From an uncultured Chlamydiae bacterium (GTDB taxonomy: Bacteria > Chlamydiota > Chlamydiia > Chlamydiales > JAJFMA01): a stretch of DNA of 64,000 nucleotides. The notes under the pieces are model-generated. The model made no database searches, was not told the DNA's origin, and saw only the letters and a program-made list of their open reading frames with translations. The position numbers were made by a program, and so were the translations under genes. Where the stretch lies: the NCBI GenBank assembly GCA_963713615.1, contig CAVQMM010000001.1:1763964-1827963 (forward strand). The letters run 5' to 3'. Positions 2,271 to 62,053 of the stretch are shown one piece after another. Each line of letters begins with the position of its first letter. Within the stretch, counting starts at the first letter, position 1.

Positions 2271-3194
2271 ATGGAACGAATATTAGTCGTAGATGATGAG
2301 CCAGCAAATACTGAAATGCTTTCTGATCAGTTGAAAAGTGCAGGATATCGTGTTGATGCAGTAAATTCCGGCCATGCGGGATGGACCAAATTGCAGGAAG
2401 GCGAAACCTTTGACGTCATTCTCGTTGATTATATGATGCCTGAAATGAATGGTATCCAGCTTTTAAAACGCATTAAAGCCGATCCGAAATTGTGTGGGAC
2501 TCCAGTTATCATTCAAACCGCTGTAACCGAAACGACTGCTATCCTGGAAGGCATTGCAAGCGGCGCATATAACTATCTTTTTAAACCCTATCAACATGAG
2601 CTTCTATTAAGCCTCGTGAGAGCCGCGATAGCGGATGCAACGTTCAGACAGTCTGTCAATGAACAGATTTGCAATTACGGCTTGTGTCAGAGCTTGCTCT
2701 CAGAGGCAACGTACGAATTCAAAACGCTGAAAGAGGCTCGATGTGTAGCCCACTGTATCGCACGATCTCTGGAAAGTCCCTATAGAATGTCGGGTGCTGT
2801 CTTCGAATTATTCATAAACGCTATCGAGCATGGTAATCTAGGCATCACCTTCGAAGAGAAAAAGGAACTTCTTATCGCTGGCGAATGGGAAAATGAAATT
2901 GAACGTCGCCTCAACCAAGTCCCGTACAAAAATCGTGTTGTGAGAGTACAGATCAAAAAGGCCGGCGATGAACTCATCATACACATCTGTGATGAAGGAC
3001 CAGGCTTTGACCCCGCTCCATTTTTACATCTGGGTCCCGGACGTTTAGCTGGTCCCAATGGACGTGGGTTAGTCATGGCACACGTAGTTTTACCTCAGCT
3101 CACATTTTTAGGAAAAGGCAACGAAGTGATCTTCTCGTGTCGTATACAAAACTCCTTAGATGCCGTGCATTATAACCCTTTGGGAACAGCATGA
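2271..3194 (+). CDS. Response-regulator receiver domain fused to a GHKL/HATPase_c (RsbW/SpoIIAB-like) ATP-binding domain
   Basis: The N-terminus is a REC domain (ILVVDDE, DVILVDYMMPEMNG, T...K pattern). The C-terminus has an N-box (ELFINAIEHGN), a G1 box (DEGPGFDP) and a G2-like box (GRGLVMA). Confidence 0.75.
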   Translation: MERILVVDDEPANTEMLSDQLKSAGYRVDAVNSGHAGWTKLQEGETFDVILVDYMMPEMNGIQLLKRIKADPKLCGTPVIIQTAVTETTAILEGIASGAYNYLFKPYQHELLLSLVRAAIADATFRQSVNEQICNYGLCQSLLSEATYEFKTLKEARCVAHCIARSLESPYRMSGAVFELFINAIEHGNLGITFEEKKELLIAGEWENEIERRLNQVPYKNRVVRVQIKKAGDELIIHICDEGPGFDPAPFLHLGPGRLAGPNGRGLVMAHVVLPQLTFLGKGNEVIFSCRIQNSLDAVHYNPLGTA

Positions 3195-4648
3195 GCATCT
3201 GGTCTCGCAAAAGCGTCGCCCACCTGCAAAAGAGTGAACTAGAGACTCCGAGTCAACTTCAACGTACCTTGGGTCCTTTTCAGCTAGTGATGCTGGGAAT
3301 TGGCGCCATCATTGGAGCAGGCCTCTTCTCCATTACTGGTGTTGCAGCTGCGGAAAATGCTGGTCCTGCAATAGTAATCTCTTTTGCCATCGCAGCTATC
3401 GGTTCAGCCTTTGCGGGTCTATGTTATAGCGAAATGGCTACGATGATTCCCATTTCGGGCAGTGCCTATACCTACGCCTATGCCACCATGGGGCAACTGC
3501 TAGCCTGGATCGTTGGCTGGGATCTCATTCTAGAGTATGCTATTGGTGCCGCCACGGTGTCTATAAGCTGGTCGGCCTACCTAGTGTCAGTGCTACACGA
3601 TTTCGATATCCACCCTTCCACGCGATGGCTAGCCTCCCCCTGGCAGGCCGTACGGCTACCTAATGGAGTCATGGCCTATGGTCATGTGAATGTTCCTGCT
3701 GTCGTGATCGTTGTGTTACTGTCCTGCGTACTCATCATCGGCATTAAACACTCAGCGATCTTTAACTCCCTCATTGTCATCATCAAGGTCTGCGTGGTCA
3801 TCGTTTTCATTGGTGTTGGCGTCAACTATATTAACATGGATAACTACCATCCTTTTATTCCACCCAACACCGGCACCTTTGGCGAGTTCGGGTGGAGCGG
3901 CATCATGCACGCTGCTGGCGTCGTCTTCTTCGCATATATTGGCTTCGATGCTATTTCCACAGCGGCTCAGGAAACAAAGAATCCACAAAAAAACATGCCC
4001 ATAGGGATCTTAGGATCACTCGCAATATGCACAATGCTCTACATCCTGTTCTCGGGGGTGATGACCGGAATGGTGAACTACAAAGACCTCGATGTTGCAG
4101 CTCCAGTAGCTGTCGCCATCGACAAAACCCCTTATCGTTGGCTGGATTCACTCGTAAAACTAGCCGTGCTGGCAGGCTTTACATCGGTCATCTTAGTGAT
4201 GCTATTGGGTCAGTCGCGCATTCTCTACGCCATGGCTAAAGATGGCCTTTTGCCAAGGATCTTCGCCGACCTACACCCCAAATATCACACGCCTTGGCGA
4301 GCTAATCTCATCCTGATGATCTTCGTGGCCCTATTTGGCGCTTTTGCACCTCTGTCATGGGTGGGGGAGATGACTAGCATTGGCACACTATTCGCCTTTG
4401 TCATCGTGTGTGCTTCAGTCATGATGCTACGTTACCGCCACCCAGAATATCCACGGTCTTTTAGAACGCCTTGGGTGCCTTTTGTGCCCATCATGGGCAT
4501 CTTGGTCTGTTTTGCCATGATGGTATCTCTGGGACTCTCGAACTGGTTGCGTCTAGTCATTTGGTTGGTCATTGGCTTGCTAGTGTACGTCTTTTATGGC
4601 CACCGCAACGCCCTTGCGACGCCGCAACAGCCATTAAAGCCCTTATAA
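3191..4648 (+). CDS. APC-superfamily amino-acid permease (cationic amino acid transporter-like)
   Basis: The protein is 485 aa with about 12-13 hydrophobic segments. The N-terminal GIGAIIGAGLF motif is typical of APC permeases. The ATGA start/stop overlap with the upstream gene indicates an operon. Confidence 0.85.
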   Translation: MSIWSRKSVAHLQKSELETPSQLQRTLGPFQLVMLGIGAIIGAGLFSITGVAAAENAGPAIVISFAIAAIGSAFAGLCYSEMATMIPISGSAYTYAYATMGQLLAWIVGWDLILEYAIGAATVSISWSAYLVSVLHDFDIHPSTRWLASPWQAVRLPNGVMAYGHVNVPAVVIVVLLSCVLIIGIKHSAIFNSLIVIIKVCVVIVFIGVGVNYINMDNYHPFIPPNTGTFGEFGWSGIMHAAGVVFFAYIGFDAISTAAQETKNPQKNMPIGILGSLAICTMLYILFSGVMTGMVNYKDLDVAAPVAVAIDKTPYRWLDSLVKLAVLAGFTSVILVMLLGQSRILYAMAKDGLLPRIFADLHPKYHTPWRANLILMIFVALFGAFAPLSWVGEMTSIGTLFAFVIVCASVMMLRYRHPEYPRSFRTPWVPFVPIMGILVCFAMMVSLGLSNWLRLVIWLVIGLLVYVFYGHRNALATPQQPLKPL

Positions 4649-4927
4649 TCATGTCTCGGCGCGAAACGCTTTGGAGTCATAGGCATCAACTTAAGCAACT
4701 AACTTCGTAAATAGGCACGCAGCGCTTTGGAGTGCGGTCGCTCGCGACCGCTTTGGATTTGGGCGAAGTTGGCATTGCAAGAAACGTAACCCTTCTCTCT
4801 AGGGGTAACTGTGGGGGGGGGCAGCCTCCGTAGAACGGTGCGCGATTCAATAGGCTCGCCCAAATCCAAAGCGGTCGCGAGCGACCGCACTCCACAGCGC
4901 TTCGCGCCGAGATACGATTGTGAGGGC
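4641..4927. repeat. MITE-like palindromic element family A, copy 1 (inverted relative to copies 2 and 3; degenerate left end with a ~50-bp internal duplication/insertion)
   Basis: Shares gctttggagtgcggtcgctcgcgaccgctttggatttgggcg and its reverse complement, plus the internal core, with 26262-26500 and 56249-56506. It contains a G9 tract at 4813-4821. Confidence 0.85.
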
Positions 4928-4995
4928 TTTATTAATCATCTGACATCTCGAACGAATTCTACAATTACCTCCCTCAGTCCTTTAGTCCTTAGACA

Positions 4996-10000: not shown

Positions 10001-10275
10001 GGTTTGTGTAGTTTTTAGGAAGCAACACGGATGCACACGGATCTAGGAGGATTTAGGAGGATAGGAGTGAAAGATTCTTTCCCACCCACTCTAAACCCAT
10101 TTTATTGTTTTTTTAAAGAGAGGGTATGCTCATCCTATCCTCCTAAATCCTCCTAGATCCGTGTGCATCCGTGTTACTCCTAAAATCCCCACCAACCGTA
10201 TCTACCATCCTATCCTCCTAAATCCTCCTAGATCCGTGTGCATCCGTGTTACTTCCTAAAAACGACACAAACCAT
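10001..10275. repeat. Palindromic element family C: ~66-bp terminal inverted repeats (10001-10066 / 10206-10271) plus an internal extra direct copy (10131-10186)
   Basis: The reverse complement of 10001-10066 matches 10206-10271 with 2 mismatches. The unit is tcctatcctcctaaatcctcctagatccgtgtgcatccgtgtta. A solo copy lies at 61981-62053. Confidence 0.85.
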
Positions 10276-10288
10276 TTTTTTTCATCAC

Positions 10289-10318
10289 TTGACATAAATT
10301 GCAAGTTTTCGATATAAT
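10289..10318 (+). promoter_or_regulatory. Consensus sigma-70-type promoter (TTGACA - 18 nt - TATAAT)
   Basis: Exact TTGACA at 10289-10294 and exact TATAAT at 10313-10318. It faces the ABC importer/arg cluster about 290 nt downstream. Confidence 0.5.
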
Positions 10319-16655: not shown

Positions 16656-16834
16656 GGGCAAAAGAAGGCCTTGTTCACCTTTACGGTCAGAATTTCGGTC
16701 GGACGAAAAAGGTCGGATGTCGTGGTTTGTGACGAGGGCATAGCGCCAGCTATGTCCGAGGAGCAAAACGCGACAGACGATCCTTTTTCGTCCGACCGAA
16801 AACTGACCGCAAAGGTGAATAAGGCCCAAAAGAA
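16656..16834. repeat. MITE-like palindromic element family B, copy 1
   Basis: A long imperfect hairpin (ggccttgttcacctttacggtcag...ctgaccgcaaaggtgaataaggcc). It is nearly identical to 42344-42524. Confidence 0.85.
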
Positions 16835-17494: not shown

Positions 17495-17672
17495 AAAAAA
17501 AAGGGCCTTGTTCGGCTTTCCGGGCAGAATTTCGGTCAGGCGAGAGGTCCCAGATGCAGCAGTCGACGACGAGGGAATAGCGCTAGCTATTGCCGAGGAG
17601 GCGAATGCTGCAGATGGGCGCCTCGCAGCCGACCGAAAACTGCGCGAAAAGTCGAACAAGGCCAAAAAAAGA
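17495..17672. repeat. MITE-like palindromic element family B, diverged copy
   Basis: Same termini (ggccttgttc...gaacaaggcc) and the same central core (gacgagggaatagcgctagctattgccgaggag) as copies 1 and 3, but with different arm sequences. Confidence 0.75.
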
Positions 17673-26160: not shown

Positions 26161-26261
26161 CCAATCCTCCATAAAGAAATCGAAGGATAACACATTTTTT
26201 TAATTAAAAAAGGACATAAAGAGGTAATTGCGGAAGTCTTGGTGATGTCGAAACAAGTATT

Positions 26262-26500
26262 AAAGCCCTCACGATCGTATCTCGGCGCGAAGCGCTTTGG
26301 AGTGCGTGTCGCTCGCGACCGCTTTGGATTTGGGCGAGCCTATTGAATCGCGCACCGTTCTTTGGAGGCTTAAACCCCCACAGTTACCCCTAGAGCGAAA
26401 GGTTACGTTTCTTGCAATGCCCAGTTCACCCAAATCCAAAGCGGTCGCGAGCGACACGCACTCCAAAGGGCTTCGCGCCGAGACACGATTGTGAGGACTT
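26262..26500. repeat. MITE-like palindromic element family A, copy 2 (most complete; ~70-bp terminal inverted repeats)
   Basis: The left end (ccctcacgatcgtatctcggcgcgaagcgctttggagtgcgtgtcgctcgcgaccgctttggatttgggcg) is mirrored at the right end. The internal core carries a C5 tract. Confidence 0.9.
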
Positions 26501-26606
26501 CATTAGGCATCGGACATTAAAAAAATTCTGCAAATACCTCACTTGGTCTTTCACATTAATAACACTCTTGCCATATGATGCTTTCTCGATCAAAAGGGAC
26601 ACGGGC

Positions 26607-36595: not shown

Positions 36596-37573
36596 TTAGA
36601 AGCGCACAGAGAGGTTAGCTGTGAGGCCATGGAGCATCAGATCGCCAAAGCCTGTGTTGGTAACGTAAAAGTTCTGTATTGAAGAGTTCGATATACGCCA
36701 TGTATGAAAGAAATATTGAACCTCATAGCCTACTCCAATAGATGCCTCATAACAATCACACAAGCAGGTATCCCAGTTTAATCCTAGGAGTAACTGAAAT
36801 TGAGGCATGATTCGTCTCTTGATATTGGTCAGAGTGGTATCTACACTAGGAACGCCTGGCTCCACGATTTGAGTATTTGTTGAGGAAAAGAGACGTCCAT
36901 AGAGAAATGACGTCGAAAAATTACCAAGAAAACTAAGCCCGTTACCCAGTTCATAAGCACTATTAAATCCTATTTTTGGCCCTACACACCACAGGTTGTT
37001 TTTTTCATTTACGGTAGCATTAAAAAAGACTCCCGTATTTGTATCAACAAAGTTGTCGTAAGTGATAAATTGATTTTGATAAATCCTCCCACCCTTTACA
37101 CCAACTAGAGGGCAAATGCTATAGGCAAAATCCTCAAAACCAGGACAGGTAAAATTCAGATCTAACATGTCAAAGTTGCAATTCCACTGACTTGACGCAG
37201 GGCCCCCTACTCCATTTCCACCTATCCCAATGCCTCCCGGGCCTGGCGAAAATATCTCAGTCGCAATAATAAAGGGGTTGGAAACACTCCCTTTAACACT
37301 ATTGTGAACACGAGTCCACGAAAAACTCGTATTCAAATCGCATTTTATTTCTTTAGCCGCTGTTAATCTAAAACCAGAAGTCCAATCTTGGGGTTGAGTG
37401 ACAATTGTCGGATTGTTAAGTGCTGGTACGCTATCTACAGTGGTCGCATACGACATGCTTGATTGTAGGACGTTCCAATAGAGATACTCCACACCAATAG
37501 AAAAATCGCTCGCATTGACTAACGAAGTGATGGCCGACAGAGAGACAACTAGAAAAAATGCAATTTTTTTCAT
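36596..37573 (-). CDS. Cys-rich MOMP-like outer-membrane porin, tandem paralog 1
   Basis: Signal peptide (SLVNA|SD). Alternating beta pattern with a C-terminal ...LSVRF. Multiple Cys residues. 324-aa size class of Legionella/Chlamydiales MOMP-like proteins. Confidence 0.65.
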   Translation of the reverse strand: MKKIAFFLVVSLSAITSLVNASDFSIGVEYLYWNVLQSSMSYATTVDSVPALNNPTIVTQPQDWTSGFRLTAAKEIKCDLNTSFSWTRVHNSVKGSVSNPFIIATEIFSPGPGGIGIGGNGVGGPASSQWNCNFDMLDLNFTCPGFEDFAYSICPLVGVKGGRIYQNQFITYDNFVDTNTGVFFNATVNEKNNLWCVGPKIGFNSAYELGNGLSFLGNFSTSFLYGRLFSSTNTQIVEPGVPSVDTTLTNIKRRIMPQFQLLLGLNWDTCLCDCYEASIGVGYEVQYFFHTWRISNSSIQNFYVTNTGFGDLMLHGLTANLSVRF

Positions 37574-37614
37574 TTAAAGACTTTCCTTCCAAATTTTCCA
37601 TCGAGTAGGTGATT

Positions 37615-38589
37615 CTAGAAACGTACAGAGAAGTTAGCTGTTAGGCCATGAAGCATCAGATCGCCAAAGCCTGTGTTGGTAACGTAAAAGTTCTGTATTG
37701 AAGAGTTCGAGATACGCCATGTATGAAAGAAATATTGAACCTCATAGCCTACTCCAATAGATGCCTCATAACAATCACACAAGCAGGTATCCCAGTTTAA
37801 TCCTAGGAGTAACTGAAATTGAGGCATGATTCGTCTCTTGATATTGGTAAGAGTAGAGTCCACAGTAGGAGAGCCTGGTTCGACCATTAGAGTATGTGCT
37901 GATGTAAAGAGACGTCCATAGAGAAATGACGTCGAAAAATTACCAAGAAAACTAAGCCCGTTACCCAGTTCATAAGCACTATTAAATCCTATTTTTGGCC
38001 CTACACACCACAGGTTGTTTTTTTCATTTACGGTAGCATTAAAAAAGACTCCCGTACCTGTATCCAAAAAGTTACTGTAAGTAATGTATTGATTTTGATA
38101 AATCCTTCCACCCTTTACGCCAACCAAGGGGTAAACACTGTATACGCCATTTTCAAAGCTAGGACAGGTAAAATTCAGATCTAGCATGTCAAAGTTGACA
38201 TTCCATTGACTGGATGCAGGCCCGCCTAATCCATTTCCACCCACTCCAAACCCATTATTTGGTCCTAAAAGCTCAGTCGCAATAATAAAGGGACTGGAAA
38301 CACTCCCTTTAGAACTATTGTGAACACGAGTCCATGAAAAGCTCGTATTAACATCCCCTTCCATCCCCTTAGCTGCTGTTAATCTAAAACCAGAAGTCCA
38401 ATCTTGGGCCTGAGTCACAATTGTCGGATTGGTGAGTGCTGCTATATCATCTACAGTGGTCGCATACGACATGCTTGATTGCAGGACGTTCCAATAGAGA
38501 TACTCAACGCCAAGAGAGACATCGCTCGCGTTGACTAAAGAAGTGATCATGGACAAAGATACAACCAGTAAAAATGAAATTTTTTTCAT
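37615..38589 (-). CDS. Cys-rich MOMP-like outer-membrane porin, tandem paralog 2
   Basis: The ATG at 38589 (MKKISFLLVVSLSMITSLVNA) matches the paralog 1 N-terminus. The 43-codon upstream extension in the track is not supported. The C-terminal half is nearly identical to paralog 1. Confidence 0.65.
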   Translation of the reverse strand: MKKISFLLVVSLSMITSLVNASDVSLGVEYLYWNVLQSSMSYATTVDDIAALTNPTIVTQAQDWTSGFRLTAAKGMEGDVNTSFSWTRVHNSSKGSVSSPFIIATELLGPNNGFGVGGNGLGGPASSQWNVNFDMLDLNFTCPSFENGVYSVYPLVGVKGGRIYQNQYITYSNFLDTGTGVFFNATVNEKNNLWCVGPKIGFNSAYELGNGLSFLGNFSTSFLYGRLFTSAHTLMVEPGSPTVDSTLTNIKRRIMPQFQLLLGLNWDTCLCDCYEASIGVGYEVQYFFHTWRISNSSIQNFYVTNTGFGDLMLHGLTANFSVRF

Positions 38590-38885
38590 TTTGAGACTTT
38601 CCTTAATTTTTCTTTTCGTTGACGATGTAAACGCCCCGGTTGTGGTGGTATAGATCGTCCGAAATACTAATCCACATCTCGACATCGTTGCAAATATTGT
38701 TTTGATAGAGGGTGTCATTCAAACTTGTACTCTCTATTGGCCGGCTAAGCAATCAGGTTCACAGATGGCCTGACCTCGCCAAAGTCTCTTCCATCCAACC
38801 TAACACGGGAAATCAATCCGCATGATGTTGAGGATTAACTTATTGAAGAGATAGTTGACAAATGGAACAAACGAACCCAAATAGC

Positions 38886-41098: not shown

Positions 41099-41307
41099 AA
41101 GAAAATACTATTGCTGTCGACGTAATACTGTAAAGCAAATAAACGGATATTTGGCGACGCCGTCAGTTGGGGCTCCAAAGCGCTGCGCACCGAGTGATGA
41201 AATTCTTAAAATATCATTCGTATATAATTTATCCTTTATGATATCAACACCCTCATGCATCTCATGTCTACTACAAAAGCAGCAAACGCATAAACTTATG
41301 TATTGTC

Positions 41308-42343: not shown

Positions 42344-42524
42344 GCCCGAAAAACCGGCCTTGTTCACCTTTACGGTCAGAATTTCGGTCGGACGAAAAAA
42401 GTCGGATGTCGTGGTTTGTGACGAGGGCATAGCGCCAGCTATGTCCGAGGAGCAAAACGCGACAGACGATCCTTTTGCAGTCGACCGAAAACTGACCGCA
42501 AAGGTGAATAAGGCCGAAAAACCG
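42344..42524. repeat. MITE-like palindromic element family B, copy 3
   Basis: Nearly identical to 16656-16834 across arms and core. Confidence 0.85.
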
Positions 42525-51364: not shown

Positions 51365-51880
51365 CACACCCCTCCCCCTTCGTGCCCGTGCCCATATGCG
51401 TTAAGCTAAGAGAATTAGGAATTTTCACCGCCGAGGCACCGAGATAGGAGAGAGAGGAAAAGGAAAGAATGTTCAGTTACTAACGACTCTGGACAAAATC
51501 CAGTCTAAGGGTTCCCGCAGGAATACCATTTAGTAGTGCCCTTAGACAGGACTTTGTCCAGAGCCAGCAGTAACCGAACAGATCCTCAATTTAACAAAAA
51601 AAGTTAGATTGAGCACCTGTCCCGTTTGTGTGTCCTTGGGCAAATCCTATCTAAGGGCTTTACCAAAATGACACCCCCTCAGAAGGCCCTTAGGCAGAAT
51701 TTTGCCCAAGGACACACAAACGGCACATTCTCTCCTAATCCTCTCTCTCCTATCTCGGCGCCTCGGCGGTGAAAATCCTAAAAAAGCCCCACGAACCTCT
51801 ACGCGCCTCGGCGGTGAAAATTCCTAATTCTCTTAACTTAACGCGCATGGGCACGCACACGAGCACGAAGGGGGAGGGAG
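51365..51880. repeat. Nested palindrome complex: outer inverted repeat, family D-type inner arms, and two independent internal hairpin elements
   Basis: The outer arms pair (~51365-51438 with ~51803-51880). The inner arms are ccgagataggagagagagg / cctctctctcctatctcgg. Internal hairpins lie at ~51487-51563 and ~51619-51727. The right-arm segment gcgcctcggcggtgaaaat is duplicated. Confidence 0.8.
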
Positions 51881-51948
51881 GAACCGTGCGTGGTATAATA
51901 TTGACCACTTATATTATGGTCATCGTCTAAGCAAAAAAGACGAGGGTC

Positions 51949-53391
51949 ATGAAGAAATCCCTTATTTTAACGGCTCTATTTCTGCTTTTCGCGTCAGGAT
52001 GCGCCCTTCCCGACCCCAGCGCCGAGGGTGAAGCTCCCCGTTGCCCTGGCACAAAATGGACTTCTCCGCGTCGCGTCCCTTCGGCCCCCTGCTGCAAATA
52101 TGCCGATCCTGTCGAATATCCCGACCCGTTAACCCTTTGGGAACTCGTTGATATCTCGTTAAGAAATAATCCTCAAACCGAACAGTCGTGGCGAAATGCC
52201 CGCACCGCCTATTATAACCTTGGATCCGCCGAATCCACATTGTATCCTCTGGTCGATGGGACGATATCCGCTCAAGCAACGGCAGGTAATGGTGCGGGGG
52301 GGGCAACTACAAGTAGCTTTGGTTCCAGTCAGGCGGGCTTTGTTTCAGGTAGCCGTGCTGTAGGAAATGGTAATACCCAATCGTTCACAACAGATCTGGC
52401 TGTTTCCTACCTCATCTTGGACTTTGGAGGGCGCTGTGCTCAAATTAGACAGGCCTGCAAAGCTCTACAAGCTGCCAATTGGACACATAGCAGAACCGTC
52501 CAGACCGTTATGGTCGGAACACTAGATGCCTATTACAACTACATCTATGCGATTGGGCTAGTGCATACTAGAGAACTAGATCTACATGATGCAGAGGTCA
52601 ACTTAGATGCGGCAAAGCAGCGATTCGAAGCTGGCGTAGCCACACACGTCGATGTCCTCCAATCACAAGCCAGTGAAGTCAATGCTAAGCTACAGCTTGT
52701 CACAGCTCAAGGACAGGTTAAAATAAACAGGGGACAACTGGCTGCAGCTATGGGATGGCCCGCAGATACATGCCTGGTCGTTGAAAACCTTCCCGAACAC
52801 TTGCCCGTGGCGGAAATTTCAGACGATATTTGCTGCATGGTGGAAGTCGCCAAGGGCTCCAGACCAGACCTTACAGCCGCCTATTATGCATACTTAAAAG
52901 CGAAGGAAAATATTATTATCGCCCGGTCAGGAGGGCGCCCAACAATATCATTTGGTGGCGATGTTCAGCGCAACACCTTCATTGCTATGCCAAAGCTCAA
53001 CAATGGATCACAAAGCGCTCTTCTTAGCCTTTCTATACCTATTTTCGAAGGATATTTTTATGAAAACCAAGCGGCAAGCGCTGTAGAGAGCTCTGCGGCT
53101 GCCTTTGCAGCGTGGAGAGCTGCTGAGTTAGGAGTTCTTCTCGATGTCGTTACCGCCTATGCCAACTATACCACGGCTGCTGAATCCATCGACTTCAGCG
53201 AACAATATCTTAAGTATTCCCAAGAAGCTTATGACGCAACTTTGGAAAACTACAAAAATGGTACAGGATCTTTCCTTGATGTCCTTACGGCGGAAACAAC
53301 CCTCTCTGCAGCACGTGTACAGTGGGTTCAAGCACGTACACAGTATCTCATATCTATAGCTAATATCGCCTACGCCGTTGGTACTCTTTAG
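51949..53391 (+). CDS. TolC-family outer-membrane efflux protein (lipoprotein)
   Basis: Lipobox (LLFASGC). Two OEP repeats. 480 aa. Confidence 0.75.
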   Translation: MKKSLILTALFLLFASGCALPDPSAEGEAPRCPGTKWTSPRRVPSAPCCKYADPVEYPDPLTLWELVDISLRNNPQTEQSWRNARTAYYNLGSAESTLYPLVDGTISAQATAGNGAGGATTSSFGSSQAGFVSGSRAVGNGNTQSFTTDLAVSYLILDFGGRCAQIRQACKALQAANWTHSRTVQTVMVGTLDAYYNYIYAIGLVHTRELDLHDAEVNLDAAKQRFEAGVATHVDVLQSQASEVNAKLQLVTAQGQVKINRGQLAAAMGWPADTCLVVENLPEHLPVAEISDDICCMVEVAKGSRPDLTAAYYAYLKAKENIIIARSGGRPTISFGGDVQRNTFIAMPKLNNGSQSALLSLSIPIFEGYFYENQAASAVESSAAAFAAWRAAELGVLLDVVTAYANYTTAAESIDFSEQYLKYSQEAYDATLENYKNGTGSFLDVLTAETTLSAARVQWVQARTQYLISIANIAYAVGTL

Positions 53392-54014
53392 ACTATTTCT
53401 CGAGGACAGGTCCCTGGTTCGGCATATACTGTACCCGATACGAGACTGGCAGCATCCTTCGAGGGCTGAATAAACCCCTGAGAAGAAATATCCAATCCTG
53501 AATTGAATTTGCTCGCTAATCCCTGAAAGCAGATGAGGGCCGTTAACTCAACGATTTCATCGTCGGTAAAGTGCTCCTTGACGTCATTGAACAGTGCATC
53601 ACTCACCTTGCCAGCCGATGTGAGAACCTCGGCGTAGCGTAAAGCTTGACGCTCTTTTGGAGAAAACAATGGACTATCCTGTGATGATGCCAGCGATAGC
53701 AATTTCCTTTCATCCATCCCACCCTTCACCGCTAGCCAAGAATTGATGTCGATACAAAAGGGACTCTGATAGATCTGAGATATCCGCGCAGTCACTAGAG
53801 CGCGTAAATCTTGAGGAAGAGGAGAATTTCGACGCTCTAATGCATTCCTGAAGTGAGAAAACGCCAGATATAGAGACGGACTGCGCCCCCAAATTAGGCT
53901 AGGCTCCAAGGGAGCTCCATACTTGCGTTTCTGAAAAAAGAACAGAATACGTAAATACCAGGGGTAAGCTTGGACTGGCTTGGGCTGTATCCGCGACATT
54001 GAATTACCTCTCAA
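53388..54014 (-). CDS. Carboxymuconolactone decarboxylase (AhpD-like) family protein
   Basis: Helical ~200-aa protein with a pattern resembling CMD-family peroxidase-related proteins (RISQIYQSPFCIDINSW, LTALICFQGL). Assignment is by pattern only. Confidence 0.45.
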   Translation of the reverse strand: MRGNSMSRIQPKPVQAYPWYLRILFFFQKRKYGAPLEPSLIWGRSPSLYLAFSHFRNALERRNSPLPQDLRALVTARISQIYQSPFCIDINSWLAVKGGMDERKLLSLASSQDSPLFSPKERQALRYAEVLTSAGKVSDALFNDVKEHFTDDEIVELTALICFQGLASKFNSGLDISSQGFIQPSKDAASLVSGTVYAEPGTCPREIV

Positions 54015-54514
54015 CCCTTAAACGTATAAGTTGTGAAGGCGATTCGGTCAAGCGCTTACAGTCTATTATGAGTCTATTATGCCAAATCCCCCACATAACC
54101 TCTGAAAAACAATCCCATTTTAATATGCCGCTATACCTAGTCCTATCAATGCATCCAATAGAACACGTAAAACCGCACCCATTAGTGCACGTCTCACTAT
54201 AGGCATTGAACCAATAGCTTGAAAATTGGATAGCATTAATTGTATCATATAAAAACCCAACCACCACATGTTATATTATAACACTAAGTATAAATTTAAT
54301 CTTAAACAATTAAATATTTACATATTCGCATTGGCTATAAAAAAGGATTTATTCAAACCTAGGGGTTATGCAGCCGAATTCTCCTACTTCGCACAGGAAC
54401 ATCGTGAAGTTATCCACAGCGCTAAGGGTCCATTCCGTGTAGTTCCTTATTTATACCACAATCGTTCACAAAGTTGGATTTGGGCCCACATATCCTTATG
54501 GTGAACCCCTTCAA

Positions 54515-54982
54515 CTATCTTCGCCTAGTTTTCTTGCCGCCGGATTCGATATTCGGGTGTGGCGGTGTTGTATTCTCGGCATCGGTATTCATCTTCACAA
54601 CTTTCTTTTCCTTTAGAGAAGACTCAAACGCCTGCTTGAACTCTGCTTCCGAAAATGTTCGTTTAAGAGGAACAATGACTTGTGCAATCACAAAACCTCT
54701 AACTTGATAAGCAATCCTTGCCGCATTCTTCCCCTCGGGCCCTTGAATGTCAACTCGTTCAATGCGTCCAGTTCCGCGAAGACCTTTCAAATCCCCAGCT
54801 TGAGCATTTAACACCATGTGACCCGAGCCGTCCCTTAACAAAAGCCCAAAACCCTGACTTTCAATAAATTCGTCTAACTTTTCGTGCATTTCAGAGCTGA
54901 CTTTCTTGTTCCCGCCAGTCACATCTTTGTCCGTTAAGTGATAACCTCCTGTTGCAGGCTGAAAATGTTCCAAATTTTCCAT
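54515..54982 (-). CDS. Hypothetical protein (155 aa) with a basic C-terminal tail, in an AT-rich islet
   Basis: ORF with a conventional ATG. No recognisable motif. Flanked by very AT-rich DNA. Confidence 0.45.
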   Translation of the reverse strand: MENLEHFQPATGGYHLTDKDVTGGNKKVSSEMHEKLDEFIESQGFGLLLRDGSGHMVLNAQAGDLKGLRGTGRIERVDIQGPEGKNAARIAYQVRGFVIAQVIVPLKRTFSEAEFKQAFESSLKEKKVVKMNTDAENTTPPHPNIESGGKKTRRR

Positions 54983-55278
54983 TTTAGCACCTCAAATAAA
55001 TAATAAAAGGCACACTTATTATTATATATTTAAATTATATTATATTTAAACGAACAAAAAGCAACTTAAAAACAATAAATAATGGACACGCATGGCTTTT
55101 TTTACTTAACAAATTATTTGAATAACAGTCTTAGAAGATAGCATGAAACTAGGGAGATTAAGACGGCGGAAAGTTTTTTATAAAAAAACTTCAACAATCC
55201 GAGAACAAAAGCCATGGGGAGCTATACCGGGCGCATGGTATCTCTAAATTCATTGTTCGGGATTTCGCGACAAAAGTC

Positions 55279-55527
55279 CTAGATCTTGACTTTGTTATAG
55301 ATCCAAGCCAGTAAGAAAAATCCTATGAAGCCATCGACAAAACCATAGACTAGGCCAAGAACACTACCTAACAGTGTGACATGGAATCCTGGGTAAATGC
55401 CCTCCATGATCCCCATCCACTGTACAGCATATCCGGTATACAATGAAAACAAGGTCACTATGAACATAAATAACCCCCACAGGATTCCTCCCGCAAGGCC
55501 CAAGCGTTTTGCATCTAACATACACAC
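55279..55527 (-). CDS. Small integral membrane protein (82 aa, 3 predicted TM helices)
   Basis: Gly/aromatic-rich hydrophobic segments (GGILWGLFMFIVTLF, GSVLGLVYGFVDGFIGFFLLAWIY). Confidence 0.5.
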   Translation of the reverse strand: MCMLDAKRLGLAGGILWGLFMFIVTLFSLYTGYAVQWMGIMEGIYPGFHVTLLGSVLGLVYGFVDGFIGFFLLAWIYNKVKI

Positions 55528-55745
55528 CTCCTCAGGAATGCGGGCAAGGCGACTATATCTATTCCTTACCCTATTCTTATTTTGCGCCTAAATAATTATT
55601 TTTACAATATGGCTAAAAACAAGACATTTGACAAGAATCCGGCTATTTCTTGTGAAAATCCTAACATTGTACAGTTTTCTTTATTTATTCTTAACAATTG
55701 TCTAGTAGCGTAACCGCGCAATCATTAACCATAAGGAGGGTTGTA

Positions 55746-56186
55746 ATGACTGTACAAACGATAGGGAAGGAATTATATTTAATGGGAATCCTTCCATGTG
55801 GGACTACGCTCCGAGAATGCTCACATGAGCTATTCGTTTCCACATTAGAATGGACTGGACTGGCTGGAGTGGCGATCATTAGCGCGACGATAGGCGCACA
55901 AATTTTGGTCACACGAGCCGAAAACCGCAGCTGGGCAAGGGATATTCGTGAACAACAGCAGGCTATCTCAAACCGCTTTCAGACGACTAGTGCAATGCTT
56001 CTTCTAGGTGGAGTTCTTGCTACTGCCCTTGCCATCTTCAAGCTAACGGCTGCTGCTTTGCTTAGTATCACGGCAAGTACAATCATTGGCGGAATCTGGT
56101 TGGGAGTAGGCACTGCGGTAGTGCTTAACTACATCGTACACAAACGCGCCTTTGCGGATGATGGTAGAAAGGCACAGCTCGTCTAA
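55746..56186 (+). CDS. Hypothetical membrane protein with paired adjacent TM helices (Inc-like bilobed hydrophobic segment)
   Basis: The ATG at 55746 is preceded by an aaggaggg SD, and the track start at 55698 is a TTG extension. The segment LLLGGVLATALAIFKLTAAALLSITASTIIGGIWLGVGTAVVL forms two helices joined by a short turn. Confidence 0.55.
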   Translation: MTVQTIGKELYLMGILPCGTTLRECSHELFVSTLEWTGLAGVAIISATIGAQILVTRAENRSWARDIREQQQAISNRFQTTSAMLLLGGVLATALAIFKLTAAALLSITASTIIGGIWLGVGTAVVLNYIVHKRAFADDGRKAQLV

Positions 56187-56248
56187 AAAGAGTAGAAAAT
56201 GATTCGCCTGGCCCAGGAATGGGCCAGGCGATGACACGCATCGACCTA

Positions 56249-56506
56249 AACCCTCACAAGCGTTACTCGGCGCGAAGCGCTTTGGAGTGCGTGTCGCTCG
56301 CGACCGCTTTGGATTTGGGCGAGCCTCTTGAATCGCGCACCGTTCTACGGAGGCTTACCCCCCCCCCCCCCCCCCCCCCCCCCACACACAGTTACCCCTA
56401 GAGCGAAAGGTTACGTTTCTTGCAATGCCAACTTCGCCCAAATCCAAAGCGGTCGCGAGCGACGCGCACTCCAAAGTGCTGCGCGCCAAGCAACTATTGT
56501 GAAGAC
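56249..56506. repeat. MITE-like palindromic element family A, copy 3 (carries a C26 tract)
   Basis: Same terminal inverted repeats and core as copy 2. It lies ~90 nt upstream of the 56597 gene. Confidence 0.88.
56358..56383. repeat. Homopolymeric C26 tract followed by (AC)3
   Basis: Counted directly from the sequence. The homologous position has C5 in copy 2 and G9 (opposite orientation) in copy 1. Confidence 0.9.
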
Positions 56507-56596
56507 CTAGGTCGACTGCGCCACAAAGGAACTATTCCCCTTCAAACACCTTTGCGATATAATACACGGCAACCTTAATCATTGCCTTGTGAAACG

Positions 56597-58081
56597 ATGC
56601 GAATACCTCAAACAACCTTGAATATACCCACAACACTGCTGTCCAGTCTCAACCCTTTGTCATGGCCCGGCACAGTACGCCAAATGCACCATCGCATAAC
56701 CGACCATTGGAATGGCCATCCTGTGCCTGTGACCACTGCCATCTCGACGGCACAAGCGCTTGCAAACGTAAAGCTCTTTCTGAAAAATCCATTTTGCTCC
56801 GATGTGATGAACTTGAACGTCAATGCCAAAGGGACCATCCTTAGAAACTCTCCTACTCTTCTTGAGAAATGGCACCCCGAAACTATACGAGGACGCAAAT
56901 GTAGACTTCAAGGAGCTTTGCTGGCTTCACTAGAACGACTTGAAAAGAGTGTAACTCCCACTACAGAGCAACACATCCTGATCGAAAAAGTGCAGAGATT
57001 TCTGAAGTTTTCAAAACATAAGTGCTGGTTCAAACACGATATTTCAAAAAATGTCAAAAGCTATGGATCATTCAATCGTCAATGTACGGTAGAGCGCCAT
57101 CGATCGCCCAAGGATTCGCTACAACCGGTCCAAAGCAAGGGACGTTATTTCAACTATAAGGGCGAAAGCCACCTTAAACACACGCTAGAAACTATTGCAC
57201 TGCTTTTCACCGGGATGTTTAGAGCCCCTTATAACAAATCTCCAAGTGAACTTGTAGACATGGCACCTCCAGCCTATCGCCAAGATGGGGTAACAGTTCA
57301 ATGGATTGGCCATTCTACCTTCTTGGTGCAAGCAGAGGGCATGAACATCTTGGTCGATCCCAACTTCGAAAAGTCCTTTATTCCGCCCGTTTTTAAGCGT
57401 TATACGCCGCCAGGAATCTCTCTGAATAATCTTCCCCCTATTGACGTCATCTTAATTTCTCATAATCACGGTGACCATTGTGATGTAAAAGCTATTAAAC
57501 ACCTTGCAAGATACAATCCACTCATTCTCGCACCGCAAGGGACACACAAATGGCTGCGAAACATGGGCATCAGCAATATCAAAGGCAACAAATGGTGGGA
57601 TGAGACAGTCATAAAAAACCCTAAAGACCCCTCTAAAGAAATACGTCTGACATTTGGTCCAGCCCAACATTGGACGCAAACAACACTCGGCAACAGTCAT
57701 AAGCACTATTGGGGTTCCTGGTTCATCCAGGCAGTGGGAAAAACACTGTACTATTCCGGAGATACTGGCCTCAAACCACAACCGGGTCAAGAGAACTACT
57801 GGCAAAGTATTCGTCAGAAATTCCCAAAAATTCACTACGCCCTACTCCCCATAGCACCTGAAGGAGAACCTTACGAACACCTAACGCATGATGATGCCCT
57901 TGATCTTATGCAAGAGCTCAAGATCGAAGAGGCCACTCCCATCCATTGGGGAGCCATCCGAACGGGTGCTGAACAGCTCCATGAACCGATTGAGAAATTT
58001 GAATATGCCGTCGCACGACGTCGACAACTTCCTGGAAGAATAAGCATCTTAAAGGTCGGTCAGCGTCACCGCGTGGCCTGA
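56597..58081 (+). CDS. MBL-fold metallo-hydrolase (NAPE-PLD-like) with a ~230-aa N-terminal extension of unknown function
   Basis: HxHxDH motif (ISHNHGDHCD) and a beta-lactamase-fold pattern in the C-terminal ~260 aa. The ATG at 56597 is preferred over the TTG at 56582. Confidence 0.7.
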   Translation: MRIPQTTLNIPTTLLSSLNPLSWPGTVRQMHHRITDHWNGHPVPVTTAISTAQALANVKLFLKNPFCSDVMNLNVNAKGTILRNSPTLLEKWHPETIRGRKCRLQGALLASLERLEKSVTPTTEQHILIEKVQRFLKFSKHKCWFKHDISKNVKSYGSFNRQCTVERHRSPKDSLQPVQSKGRYFNYKGESHLKHTLETIALLFTGMFRAPYNKSPSELVDMAPPAYRQDGVTVQWIGHSTFLVQAEGMNILVDPNFEKSFIPPVFKRYTPPGISLNNLPPIDVILISHNHGDHCDVKAIKHLARYNPLILAPQGTHKWLRNMGISNIKGNKWWDETVIKNPKDPSKEIRLTFGPAQHWTQTTLGNSHKHYWGSWFIQAVGKTLYYSGDTGLKPQPGQENYWQSIRQKFPKIHYALLPIAPEGEPYEHLTHDDALDLMQELKIEEATPIHWGAIRTGAEQLHEPIEKFEYAVARRRQLPGRISILKVGQRHRVA

Positions 58082-59607
58082 CTTATACCACACTCGGTGT
58101 GGTCTTGAGGCAATGGAGCGAACTGAAAAGGTGCCAGATCAGCGTCGCTAAAGGTGGGTTTGTCAAACTCCACCATTTTTTGATAGAAGTGTGCACTATT
58201 TTCCAGAAAAAAATCTGTGGTTATCCCCTCGGCCAACCGCGCGGCTGAAGTACTCATCCCTTTAATATCCCCTGTCATCATCCCGTGACTCAGCGCAGCG
58301 CCAAAGTTAAAACAGTAGATGTGCTTCAAAAAGGGAGCTGTGCCTGCATGCTTCTCCAAAAACTGAAAGTGTGGACCGAGGTAAGGTGCGCTAGCTAATT
58401 TAGGACATGTCTCGCAAGTGTCTGGAGTAATACGGTCTTCCCACAGCAAAATCTTATCCAAAAAACTGCGCAGCTCAGGTCTTTGGGAACCATCAAAATC
58501 AAATCCACAGGCCAAAATCATGTAGTCGGCAGCCAGGACACCCTGACTGGTGCTCATTTCGATACCGCGATCAGTCTGTTGGACCGAGAGAATGCTGCAG
58601 TCGGAGTGAATATAGAAATTGGACTGTTTTTGTACTCGTAAAAGAGAATCTCGCGGAGGGGGGATACCGTTGGCAAGGGCACAGGACATAAACTCCCAAC
58701 GCTGCTGATCACTCATGGAATAATATCCCAAAACAAAACCAGGACCAGATAACACGGCAAATTTGTTGGTAGGGTTAAATGTCGGACGCCGCACGACCAT
58801 GTGTACAGAGGCAGCACCATTTTCCAAGGCCACTGCTGCGGAATCAAAGCCAGAGGCTCCAGCGCCGACGACCACAACGCGCTTGCCCGATAGTGAGGCG
58901 AAGTCTATCTGCTCTGCAGAGTGTGCATAACAGCGTTTGGGAAGGCCCTGAACCCATTCAGGAATCTGCAAACCACCAAAACCTGTGCGTCCTGTGGCCA
59001 ATACAACCTTCCGTGCCCAAACAATTTCCTGCTGATCACCTTTGCGGAAAGTTAAGCGTAGAATATCGTTAGTGGGCTCTATGGATTCGAGTTTAACACC
59101 ATTTACCACTGGTAACTTGAGCACATGGCGATACCAGCACAAATACTCCATCCATGTGGGTGTTGCCGCCGAAGACAAATTCTCCCAAGACTCAGCGCTA
59201 TAATGAGCTTCATACCATGCCCGAAAGGTAAGACTGGGCACCCAAAAAGCAGGCCCGATGTGATACTTTCCCGAACGCAGAACTTTCATACGAGCAAAAG
59301 TTGCCCAAGGTCCTTCGCAGCCTTCCGGATTAGAATCAAACATCTTAACATGTTGAATTCCCTGCTTCTGCAAAGCAAAGGTGGCTGTCATCCCAGCCAT
59401 CCCACCACCAACAATAGCGACATCAAGAGTCTCCGCGGGATAATCACTGGGAATAGCAGGTAACCATGGTTGACCTGGAAAACTAATGGTTTGGAGTTCC
59501 CAACTAACACGCTCCTGCAGGGTATCCAAATCGGCCCTTAATAAGGCATGAAAACCCCACAACGCACAGAAAATAGACATGCTGAGCAAGCGGACAAATG
59601 ACGTCAT
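58066..59607 (-). CDS. FAD/NAD(P)-binding oxidoreductase (flavin monooxygenase-like) with a signal/anchor-like N-terminus
   Basis: Two dinucleotide-binding motifs (VAIVGGGMAGM and VVVVGAGASGFD). The ATG at 59607 (MTSFVRLLSMSIFCALWG) is preferred over the GTG at 59619. Confidence 0.75.
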   Translation of the reverse strand: MTSFVRLLSMSIFCALWGFHALLRADLDTLQERVSWELQTISFPGQPWLPAIPSDYPAETLDVAIVGGGMAGMTATFALQKQGIQHVKMFDSNPEGCEGPWATFARMKVLRSGKYHIGPAFWVPSLTFRAWYEAHYSAESWENLSSAATPTWMEYLCWYRHVLKLPVVNGVKLESIEPTNDILRLTFRKGDQQEIVWARKVVLATGRTGFGGLQIPEWVQGLPKRCYAHSAEQIDFASLSGKRVVVVGAGASGFDSAAVALENGAASVHMVVRRPTFNPTNKFAVLSGPGFVLGYYSMSDQQRWEFMSCALANGIPPPRDSLLRVQKQSNFYIHSDCSILSVQQTDRGIEMSTSQGVLAADYMILACGFDFDGSQRPELRSFLDKILLWEDRITPDTCETCPKLASAPYLGPHFQFLEKHAGTAPFLKHIYCFNFGAALSHGMMTGDIKGMSTSAARLAEGITTDFFLENSAHFYQKMVEFDKPTFSDADLAPFQFAPLPQDHTECGISQATR

Positions 59608-59773
59608 GACCCCTCTCACACAATAATATTTTTTTTGCCCGTATAATGAAGCAGCATCTCGCTGAAGTCAAGATGTCGATGCGCCGATGTCAGACAGAAA
59701 AAATTCAGGTCCTTCACAAAAATGAACGCCTATGCTATAAAATCGCGTTACAAACTTTGGGTTAGTAGGAAAG

Positions 59774-60475
59774 ATGATGAATGTTTCAATCTGTCAAATT
59801 CTCGAGCAAATAGATTCCCAGATTGCTGCCAAGCACCTTTTGACACACCCCTTCTACCATGCATGGTCTAAGGGAGAGTTGTCTAAGGAATGTCTGGCAG
59901 ATTACGCCGCGCAATATTATCACCACGTAAAAGCATTCCCTACTTACCTATCCGCCCTGCACTCCCACACCGACGATAGCCAAACACGTCGCCACATACT
60001 TCAAAACCTAGTGGATGAAGAAGCGGGACACCCTAATCATCCTGAGATGTGGAGACATTTCGCTCTTAGCTTAGGTCAAGCTGACGAAGAACTTGACCGA
60101 CAAGAGCCCCGAGCTGCCATTCAGGAAATGATTGCATCATTCAGTAACCTCTGTCGTGATGGTTCTGTTGCTGAAGGTATTGCTGCCCTGTATGCCTATG
60201 AAAGCCAAATTCCTAGCATCAGCGAATCTAAAATAGAAGGTCTGCTCCAGCATTACGGTATGAATAATCCCAAAGACTGGTACTATTTTAGTGTGCACAT
60301 CGAAGCGGACAAAGAGCATGCCGCAGTAGAGCGAGAACTTCTTGCTAAGCATGTTACCAGGGACAATGCTCAGGCTGTTAAAAATGCTGTAGAGCAAATA
60401 TTAGATGGCCTGTGGGCATTCTTAGACAGCCTTTGTGAGAAGTACCAGATCTCCTGCACAATGCCAACTGCTTAG
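59774..60475 (+). CDS. CADD-family protein (CT610-like haem-oxygenase-like di-iron oxidase; p-aminobenzoate synthase in Chlamydia)
   Basis: Strong colinear resemblance to my recollection of C. trachomatis CT610, including HPFYHAWSKGELSKE, YYHHVKAFPTYLSALHS, NLVDEEAG.PNH and AALYAYESQIP. Confidence 0.85.
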   Translation: MMNVSICQILEQIDSQIAAKHLLTHPFYHAWSKGELSKECLADYAAQYYHHVKAFPTYLSALHSHTDDSQTRRHILQNLVDEEAGHPNHPEMWRHFALSLGQADEELDRQEPRAAIQEMIASFSNLCRDGSVAEGIAALYAYESQIPSISESKIEGLLQHYGMNNPKDWYYFSVHIEADKEHAAVERELLAKHVTRDNAQAVKNAVEQILDGLWAFLDSLCEKYQISCTMPTA

Positions 60476-60484
60476 TTAAAGCGT

Positions 60485-61957
60485 ATGTTACGCGAAGAGA
60501 TCCTACAAACCGAAACCATCATCTGCATCATCTGTTCTGCCATTCTGGTGCTAGCAGGCTTGCGTTGGCTCATCAAACGCGCAGAAAAACATGCTGCATA
60601 CAAACGCGAACTCGAAGAACGTATTCTAGAAGAATGTGAACGAAGGGCTATCGCCGAGGAAAAATGTCGACGTTTGGCTGAGCTTGATGGGGAGCTTAAG
60701 GAGCGTGACCAAAAAGTTGCTACCCTGCAACACGACAATGCTCAGCTGGCTCAACGAGTGGTGCAGTGCGAGACACAGCTCTTTGAAGAACGCAAAAATG
60801 CACAAGAGCGCCTTGAACTTGTTAAGTCGGAACAAATTAAGTTGGCTGATGCCTTCAAAGTCCTATCTGCGGACGCCCTATCTCGTAATAACCAGAGTTT
60901 TCTTGAGTTGGCCAAAGCCACTCTTGAGAAATACCAAGAAGGTGCCAAAGGGGATTTGTCCCACCGTCAAGTGGCCATTGATAATCTTGTAAAGCCCATT
61001 AAAGAGTCTCTTGATAAGGTAGACCAAAAAATCGGCGAATTGGAAAAAGCTCGTGCTGCCGCCTATGGTGGACTCTCCGAGCAGGTCCAAGGGCTAGCAA
61101 AAACCCAAATACAACTGCAAACAGAAACAGCCAATTTAGTTAAAGCCCTTCGCCAACCTACCGTCCGGGGTCGTTGGGGAGAGACGCAACTACGTCGCGT
61201 AGTAGAACTCGCTGGTATGGTCGAGCAGTGTGATTTTACATGTCAAACGTCGATGTCAACCGACGATGGAATGCGCCGTCCCGACCTCATCGTAAAATTG
61301 CCAAATGAACATCATATCGTTGTAGATGCCAAAACCCCGCTACAAGCATACCTAGACGCCTTAGAAGCTCCCGATGAGGTAACAAGAACTGCTCGCCTGA
61401 TAGACCATGCCAGACAAGTCCGTACACATATCACTCAGCTTGCTGCCAAAAGCTATTGGGACCAATTTAGTCCCACGCCGGAGTTTGTCGTATTGTTTAT
61501 CCCTGGAGAAACCTTCTTCGCAGCCGCTCTAGAACAGGACCCCACTCTGATTGAATATGGTGCAGAGCAGCGCGTGATGGTGGCCACACCAACGACATTA
61601 ATAGCATTATTGCGTGCTGTGGCTTCGGGATGGCGTCAGGAAGCCATTACCAAGAACATGCTTAAAATTAGTGAACTCGGAAAACAGCTCTACGACCGTC
61701 TGCGAACGCTTGCGGACCATTTCGAGGATATGCGTAGAGGGCTTGAACGCGCCGTAGAAGGATATAACAAAGCCGTTGGTTCGATGGAAACACGCGTGCT
61801 GGTGTCTGCGCGGAAGTTTCGCGAATTAGGTACCATCGCTCAGGGGGAAATTGTCGAGTTATCCCCGATCGATTCAAGCCCAAGAGCCCTTGCCATGCCT
61901 ATAGAAGAAACAGAGGCAAGCCCAGAGCTAGTCTCCACAGCACAAGCCATCGAGTAA
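60485..61957 (+). CDS. rmuC: DNA recombination protein RmuC
   Basis: N-terminal TM helix, a long coiled coil, and the conserved C-terminal RmuC domain ([10 protein letters not shown]...[17 protein letters not shown]). Confidence 0.85.
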
Positions 61958-61980
61958 CAAAGCTCGATGGATAGGCCATA

Positions 61981-62053
61981 ACTACCATCCTATCCTCCTA
62001 AATCCTCCTAGATCCGTGTGCATCCGTGTTACTCCTAAAAATGACACAAACCA
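61981..62053. repeat. Palindromic element family C, solo arm
   Basis: ctaccatcctatcctcctaaatcctcctagatccgtgtgcatccgtgttactcctaaaaatgacacaaacc matches 10202-10275. Confidence 0.85.

Follow-up and report, generated by a model that had tools for sequence, protein, structure and literature searches.

The stretch of DNA presented above carries a run of 26 C residues between two genes of the same strand, and it raises the question of whether so long a tract is real, how it could have arisen, and whether its length matters to the genes on either side. In the window, which here means the whole 64-kb stretch that was analysed, no homopolymer other than this run (C26) exceeds 9 nt, and the number of runs of at least 26 nt expected in the window is 2e-10. 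Runs of G or C reaching at least 7 nt number three in the 64 kb (C26 itself, a G9 at 4813 and a G8 at 52296), and C runs other than C26 have a maximum of 6 nt. The upstream gene ends with its stop codon at 56186, 171 nt before the tract begins; the start and end of the tract lie 239 and 213 nt, respectively, from the ATG of the downstream gene at 56597. The original prediction had placed the tract at about this distance from the start of a gene for an MBL-fold hydrolase, had described runs of 26, 5 and 9 nt at the same core position in the three copies of a repeat, and had noted a longer AC dinucleotide stretch in the C26 copy than the ACAG of the other two; all of this is borne out by the coordinates and by alignment of the copies. 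On balance, C26 is likely to be a real mononucleotide microsatellite that was expanded by slippage from about 8-10 C residues in the loop of a palindromic, MITE-like repeat.

The organism is placed in the Chlamydiota by its aconitase homologues, which show 69-71% identity to those of Rhabdochlamydiaceae and Protochlamydia and a best match overall of 77%. Among the functions encoded in the window are threonine biosynthesis, aconitase, a Kdp potassium-uptake system with KdpD, and a CADD/TENA-like protein. To our knowledge, the 3.9-Mb contig to which it belongs is unusually large for this phylum, and its gene content is unusually rich in metabolic functions.

The tract lies within one copy of family A, a palindromic, non-coding, dispersed repeat of ~300-330 bp with three copies in the window (Table 1). 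In each of the three, a central spacer or core separates two inverted arms, which measure 80-85 nt and show 87-91% complementarity. Five of the six arms share the same inner 30 nt, GTCGCTCGCGACCGCTTTGGATTTGGGCGA, from which the right arm of copy 2 departs by one base. Alignment of all six arms reveals weaker homology (GAGGTAATTG...) out to about 150 nt per arm, best seen in copy 2. The cores measure 88 nt in copy 2, 89 nt in copy 1 and 111 nt in copy 3. When folded as RNA, copy 3 forms one long hairpin (-157 kcal/mol, z = -11.9), and the cores alone do not exceed shuffled sequence in structure (z = 0.1 to 1.7). In a consensus fold, the tract was enclosed by a small inner hairpin, which was dropped for want of support from single-sequence energies; the core is accordingly treated as an open loop. 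Compensatory pairs account for 1 of 84 pairs in the three-copy alignment, a count that has no power either way with n = 3 copies.

Table 1. Positions of the C26 tract, of the repeat copies and of neighbouring features, counted from the first nucleotide of the window
Feature	Position	Strand	Remarks
C26 homopolymer (G26 on minus strand)	56358-56383	+	In core of family A copy 3; probable expanded version of an ancestral ~C8-10 run
ACACACAG, AC dinucleotide stretch adjoining C26	56384-56391	+	Longer than the ACAG of the other two copies
Family A copy 3	~56229-56553	+	From repeat finder and alignments
Copy 3, left inverted arm	56241-56322	+	
Copy 3, central spacer (core)	56323-56433	+	Non-palindromic, 111 nt; DNA fold z = 0.09
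Copy 3, right inverted arm	56434-56553	+	Well paired to 56515, weaker outer-arm homology to about 56553
Family A copy 2	26221-26540	+	~320 bp, most complete copy
Copy 2, arms	26258-26337, 26426-26505		
Copy 2, core	26338-26425		
Copy 2, C5	26375-26379		
Family A copy 1	4618-4971	-	Inverted orientation; C9 on minus strand, seen as G9 at 4813-4821 on plus strand
Further intergenic repeat families (at least three)	1162-1366; 51369-51873; 10001-10273; 61986-62052; 16660-16831, 17497-17668, 42349-42520		
CGCCGAGA sites	1198-1213, 1315-1330, 4654-4661, 4905-4912, 26280-26287, 26476-26483, 51753-51760		
Upstream gene	55746-56186	+	146-aa hydrophobic protein, called "Inc-like" in the original prediction; no Pfam match
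GC-rich perfect 12-bp hairpin	56204-56231		Just after the upstream gene; terminator score on minus strand only
Best promoter candidate for the MBL-fold gene	56535-56563	+	TTCCCC (3/6)-17 nt-TATAAT (6/6), by direct reading
Downstream gene	56597-58081	+	494 aa, C-terminal MBL-fold domain (PF12706/PF13483)

The three copies occupy different kinds of intergenic space: copy 1 lies between convergent genes, copy 2 between divergent genes and copy 3 between tandem genes of the plus strand. Because these gene contexts are quite different, the tract is a feature of the repeat and not of the gene pair at 55746-56186 and 56597-58081. Copy 1 has two peculiarities of its own: its outer arm is tandemly duplicated with a period of 56 nt (window 4618-4736), and it supplies approximately the last 10 codons and the TAA stop (4646-4648) of a BcaP-like amino-acid transporter gene (3191-4648).

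Alignment of the three copies shows that C26, C5 and C9 share one position in the core. The zone around the tract reads GGAGGCTTA-C26-ACACACAG in copy 3, GGAGGCTTAAA-C5-ACAG in copy 2 and, on the minus strand, GGAGGCTG-C9-ACAG in copy 1. Since the plus-strand G9 is thus the homologous site in another copy of family A, two of the three G/C runs of at least 7 nt in the window fall at a single position of one repeat. The 77 core columns outside the tract zone contain no gaps, and the copies are 91-95% identical there; the arms contain one gap in the three-copy comparison. The tract zone (the run plus the adjacent (AC)n) contains 22-23 gap columns, which make up all of the difference in core length between copies. 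With no gaps in the rest of the core and 22-23 at the tract, the element has one indel hot spot, the site of the tract. The claim that the site is prone to slippage is therefore upheld, in that the core copies differ in length here only and the neighbouring AC stretch has been expanded as well. The term "hypervariable", which had also been applied to it, refers to n = 3 paralogous copies of an organism seen in a single genome and a single run, and the differences between these copies are, as read from the alignments, instability over evolutionary time and not phase variation at the C26 locus.

A sequence of events that could have produced this pattern begins with an ancestral run of about 8-10 C in the core of family A, which would have been expanded by replication slippage. 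The arms would form a long hairpin or cruciform with the spacer as its loop, and since a change in spacer length costs neither arm pairing nor reading frame, it would be tolerated. Homopolymer runs past about 10 nt slip often and can run away. In copy 1 the run would simply have remained C9, and in copy 2 it was seemingly broken by substitutions and stayed short, for TTAAACCCCC in that copy looks like a run of about C8-9 interrupted by substitutions. In copy 3 the run would have crossed the length at which slippage is frequent and run away to about 26, presumably taking the AC repeat along with it.

Given what is established about slippage, the tract must be hypermutable in length in the living population, and it is presumably heterogeneous at the present day. 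No sign was seen that this variation is used as a switch; the tract is presumably neutral, by an argument from absence. Both the element and the tract belong to known kinds, a MITE-like repeat and a slippage-expanded homopolymer, and the tract is unusual mainly for its length. If real, C26 belongs with the longest homopolymers that have been reported for bacterial chromosomes, and it would serve as a natural marker of clonal diversity. The tract by itself reveals no new mechanism. It does suggest that the unpaired centre of a palindromic repeat can be a permissive spot for the origin of a microsatellite, and such sequence would be raw material for the evolution of contingency loci.

Family A behaves like a lineage-specific MITE-like element or palindromic intergenic repeat. 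MITEs are short (under ~600 bp) and non-coding, and no recorded gene ORF runs across this ~300-330-bp element; the copy lengths differ by 22-23 nt, so that no reading frame is kept. The arms supply the terminal inverted repeats, extending weakly to the ~150 nt noted above, and the repeat is dispersed in unrelated contexts as the three copies, an arm fragment at 41173-41194 and the protein-coding case described below. A clear direct target-site duplication was not seen in the six-arm alignment, where the ends of the element fade gradually. BLAST of the element against the 64-kb window for a partner insertion sequence returned the three copies and the one fragment only.

Evidence that the arms occur beyond the window comes from a protein search with a six-frame concatenated translation of the element. 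The sole protein returned, P0241, is encoded outside the window on the same 3.9-Mb contig and is called as a PNP_UDP_1 phosphorylase with an arm-derived N-terminal extension. This extension consists of translated family A arms around a different, shorter core, so that family A arms do occur with other cores elsewhere in the genome. Searches for relatives in other DNA yielded none. The exact arm 30-mer had no matches in the genome contigs searched, and an 18-mer gave single chance matches of ~20 nt only in genome and metagenome contigs, one of them in a Chlamydiae MAG, inside a coding region and with no palindrome around it. The core pattern had no matches in viral contigs, nor did BLAST with the element find any among plasmids and phages. 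Rfam likewise gave no match at gathering score in the whole window, and the sole match at E<=1 was a 13.9-bit chance match at 56169-56198; a structured RNA gene was rejected for lack of an Rfam match. A literature search found no paper describing MITEs in Chlamydiae.

Several known families of bacterial repeats provide a comparison, namely the Neisseria Correia elements, the enterobacterial ERIC/IRU, the Rickettsia RPE, the Stenotrophomonas SMAG and the pneumococcal RUP/BOX elements. Like these, family A is small, non-coding and dispersed, has long inverted arms that pair to give a long hairpin, and is intergenic, sometimes overlapping the ends of genes or lying beside promoter elements. Unlike them, it has arms (up to ~150 nt) of unusual length for an element of its size. 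We know of no described feature of the Correia, ERIC, RPE, SMAG or RUP/BOX families that corresponds to a runaway homopolymer in the central spacer.

All of this presupposes that the tract is present at roughly the length recorded. One might instead suppose that assembly or base-calling inflated a true tract of ~9-12 C, or that 26 is an arbitrary value drawn from a noisy pile-up. Every sequencing platform is prone to errors at long G/C homopolymers, and the only other assembly that contains the organism, the Logan k-mer assembly of run ERR11563597, ends at 56295 and restarts at 56447. Its two contigs here (L001 and L002) correspond to 51806-56295 and 56447-61991 with 100% identity and no indels; they stop within the arms, so that the tract itself is not spanned. 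However, all four contig ends fall in repeat families, the outer two breaking exactly at other repeats (51806, 61991), and the interruption is therefore explained by 31-mers repeated in the arms and not by the tract. The 10 kb around the locus are identical in this second assembly, with no indels. The tract also sits exactly on a pre-existing C run, and its two flanks are collinear with both paralogues, with no sequence lost.

Other observations also speak against an inflated tract. Seven 8-nt homopolymers in the window occur within ORFs that remain uninterrupted; of these ORFs, three (KdpD, YifB and the OEP protein) have full-length matches to family profiles. The expansion of the adjoining AC stretch is untypical of a homopolymer miscall, and long-read callers usually shorten, rather than lengthen, long homopolymers. 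Circumstantial evidence, in the form of identical flanks and open ORFs, thus argues against a gross artefact; a miscalled or misassembled tract is an unlikely explanation, and the long tract is probably real. The value of 26 may be off by a few nucleotides, and C26 marks a place at which assemblies of the genome can be expected to be unreliable and the population is probably heterogeneous.

If the tract is real, its length could in principle switch or tune the expression of the flanking genes, making it a functional contingency tract. Three modes of action may be envisaged: the tract could act at a distance on the promoter of the MBL-fold gene, its poly(C) could serve as a Rho-loading site in the loop of a transcript reading through from the gene at 55746-56186, with a longer tract insulating the MBL-fold gene better, or it could form a G-quadruplex or i-motif roadblock. 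The location between two genes of the same strand speaks for such an effect, and repeat tracts at a distance can tune promoters, as at Neisseria nadA. The promoter geometry is less accommodating. A consensus scan found no sigma-70-like sites at threshold in 56186-56597, and the best candidate by direct reading contains the TATAAT at 56558-56563, the only perfect -10 there, which lies 39 nt before the ATG and 174 nt downstream of the tract. This candidate -10 is just beyond the right end of the element, with its -35 region inside the outer arm.

A perfect TATAAT was found at most 120 nt upstream in 5 of the 50 ORFs checked, and these account for 7 of the 28 occurrences in the window, compared with about 1.3 expected. 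This enrichment, together with a consensus promoter at 10289-10317, makes a promoter of this type plausible in the organism. The MBL-fold gene most likely has, to judge from these motifs, a separate promoter at the outer edge of the element and 174 nt beyond the tract, with transcription predicted to start near 56570. Since the only perfect -10 is that far downstream, the length of the tract cannot alter -35/-10 spacing. The original prediction had proposed the tract as a promoter spacer, and this part of it is not supported: no sigma-70-like site was found at threshold inside the element, and the sole perfect -10 is outside it.

Some features would suit a role for Rho. On the plus strand, the hairpin that follows the upstream gene is without a T run, which makes read-through from that gene plausible; a T run is found only on the minus strand, where the hairpin resembles a terminator for a transcript leaving the element region. 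A 78-nt stretch containing the tract has 41 C and 9 G on the plus strand and is among the most C-rich, G-poor stretches of the window, with a C/G ratio of 4.56; the other copies have ratios of 2.0 and 1.9, and the 99th percentile of the window is 2.8. Rho utilisation (rut) sites are C-rich, G-poor and unstructured over ~70-80 nt, and both the plus-strand composition here and the unstructured core are as expected of RNA bound by Rho. No activator of Rho stronger than poly(C) is known. On the other hand, natural rut sites are not homopolymers. An incidental effect of the tract on read-through, as a Rho-loading site or as a roadblock, is possible to judge from its composition and position.

Contingency loci based on homopolymeric tracts have runs of at least ~7-8 nt, and C26 is well past this length. 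It resembles in this respect the poly-C of Neisseria opc and the poly-G of porA, the poly-C of Bordetella pertussis fim2 and fim3, the poly-G of Treponema pallidum tpr genes and the poly-G of Chlamydia pmp genes, all of them slippable runs near the 5' side of a gene. These tracts, typically 8-17 nt long, are found inside an ORF or in or beside the core promoter. In contrast, C26 is 26 nt long, intergenic, outside ORFs and the -35/-10 spacer, 174 nt upstream of the best -10, and located in a dispersed repeat in which no promoter is predicted. Variable poly-G tracts are known in Chlamydia species (for example PMC4514472, PMC6740158).

The wider context also weighs against a tract maintained for its effect on these two genes. 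The homologous site in the other copies of family A sits in quite different gene contexts, and the gene pair is not conserved in homologues. Relatives of the MBL-fold protein are named UlaG or NAPE-PLD-like, and its N-terminal part of ~230 aa has no family match. Its nearest homologues are 38% identical and have unrelated genes upstream; the order of MBL-fold gene and upstream small membrane-protein gene is absent from them. A contingency tract in the functional sense is thus distinctly improbable.

A more elaborate version would make the C26 loop a heritable and reversible insulator switch that gates transcription of the MBL-fold (NAPE-PLD-like) gene. The upstream membrane-protein gene would be read through, the arms would fold, and C26 would be presented as a platform for Rho loading or, in a variant, G26 on the template would act as a quadruplex block; changes in length by slippage would then gate transcription into the hydrolase gene. 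Were this true, it would constitute MITE-borne, Rho-dependent phase variation in an environmental chlamydia, a prospect to which we attach very little probability. The idea that the element split an operon was rejected, given the unrelated genes upstream of the nearest MBL homologues.

Slippage expansion of a pre-existing run in the loop of a palindromic repeat is accordingly the reading that we retain, and the repeats themselves deserve attention. At least three further intergenic repeat families are present in the window (Table 1). Family B has arms of 81 nt with 98% complementarity, and in its second copy these arms enclose a much longer core. Family C is likewise palindromic, and a separate family consists of direct repeats of 172 nt. 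That several palindromic repeat families are abundant in a chlamydial genome of 3.9 Mb is probably of wider interest than the tract.

The octamer CGCCGAGA occurs nine times compared with 1.5 expected, and every occurrence falls within an arm of family A or B. It may be a protein-binding motif common to otherwise unrelated repeats. Promoter elements are found right downstream of palindromic repeats of families B and C and of family A copy 3 (56558-56563). The consensus TTGACA-17-TATAAT at 10289-10317 comes immediately after a family C element and upstream of a gene, and TGgTATAAT at 51891-51899 follows a family B element, with the TATAAT starting 55 nt before the OEP gene.

Two other features of the window were noted. 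The G8 at 52296-52303, the sole G/C run of at least 7 nt outside family A, lies within the open OEP/TolC-like outer-membrane efflux gene at 51949-53391 and is a candidate frameshift-prone site. At 36596-38718, tandem paralogous genes (325 and 367 aa) are 86-93% identical in DNA over 300-nt blocks.
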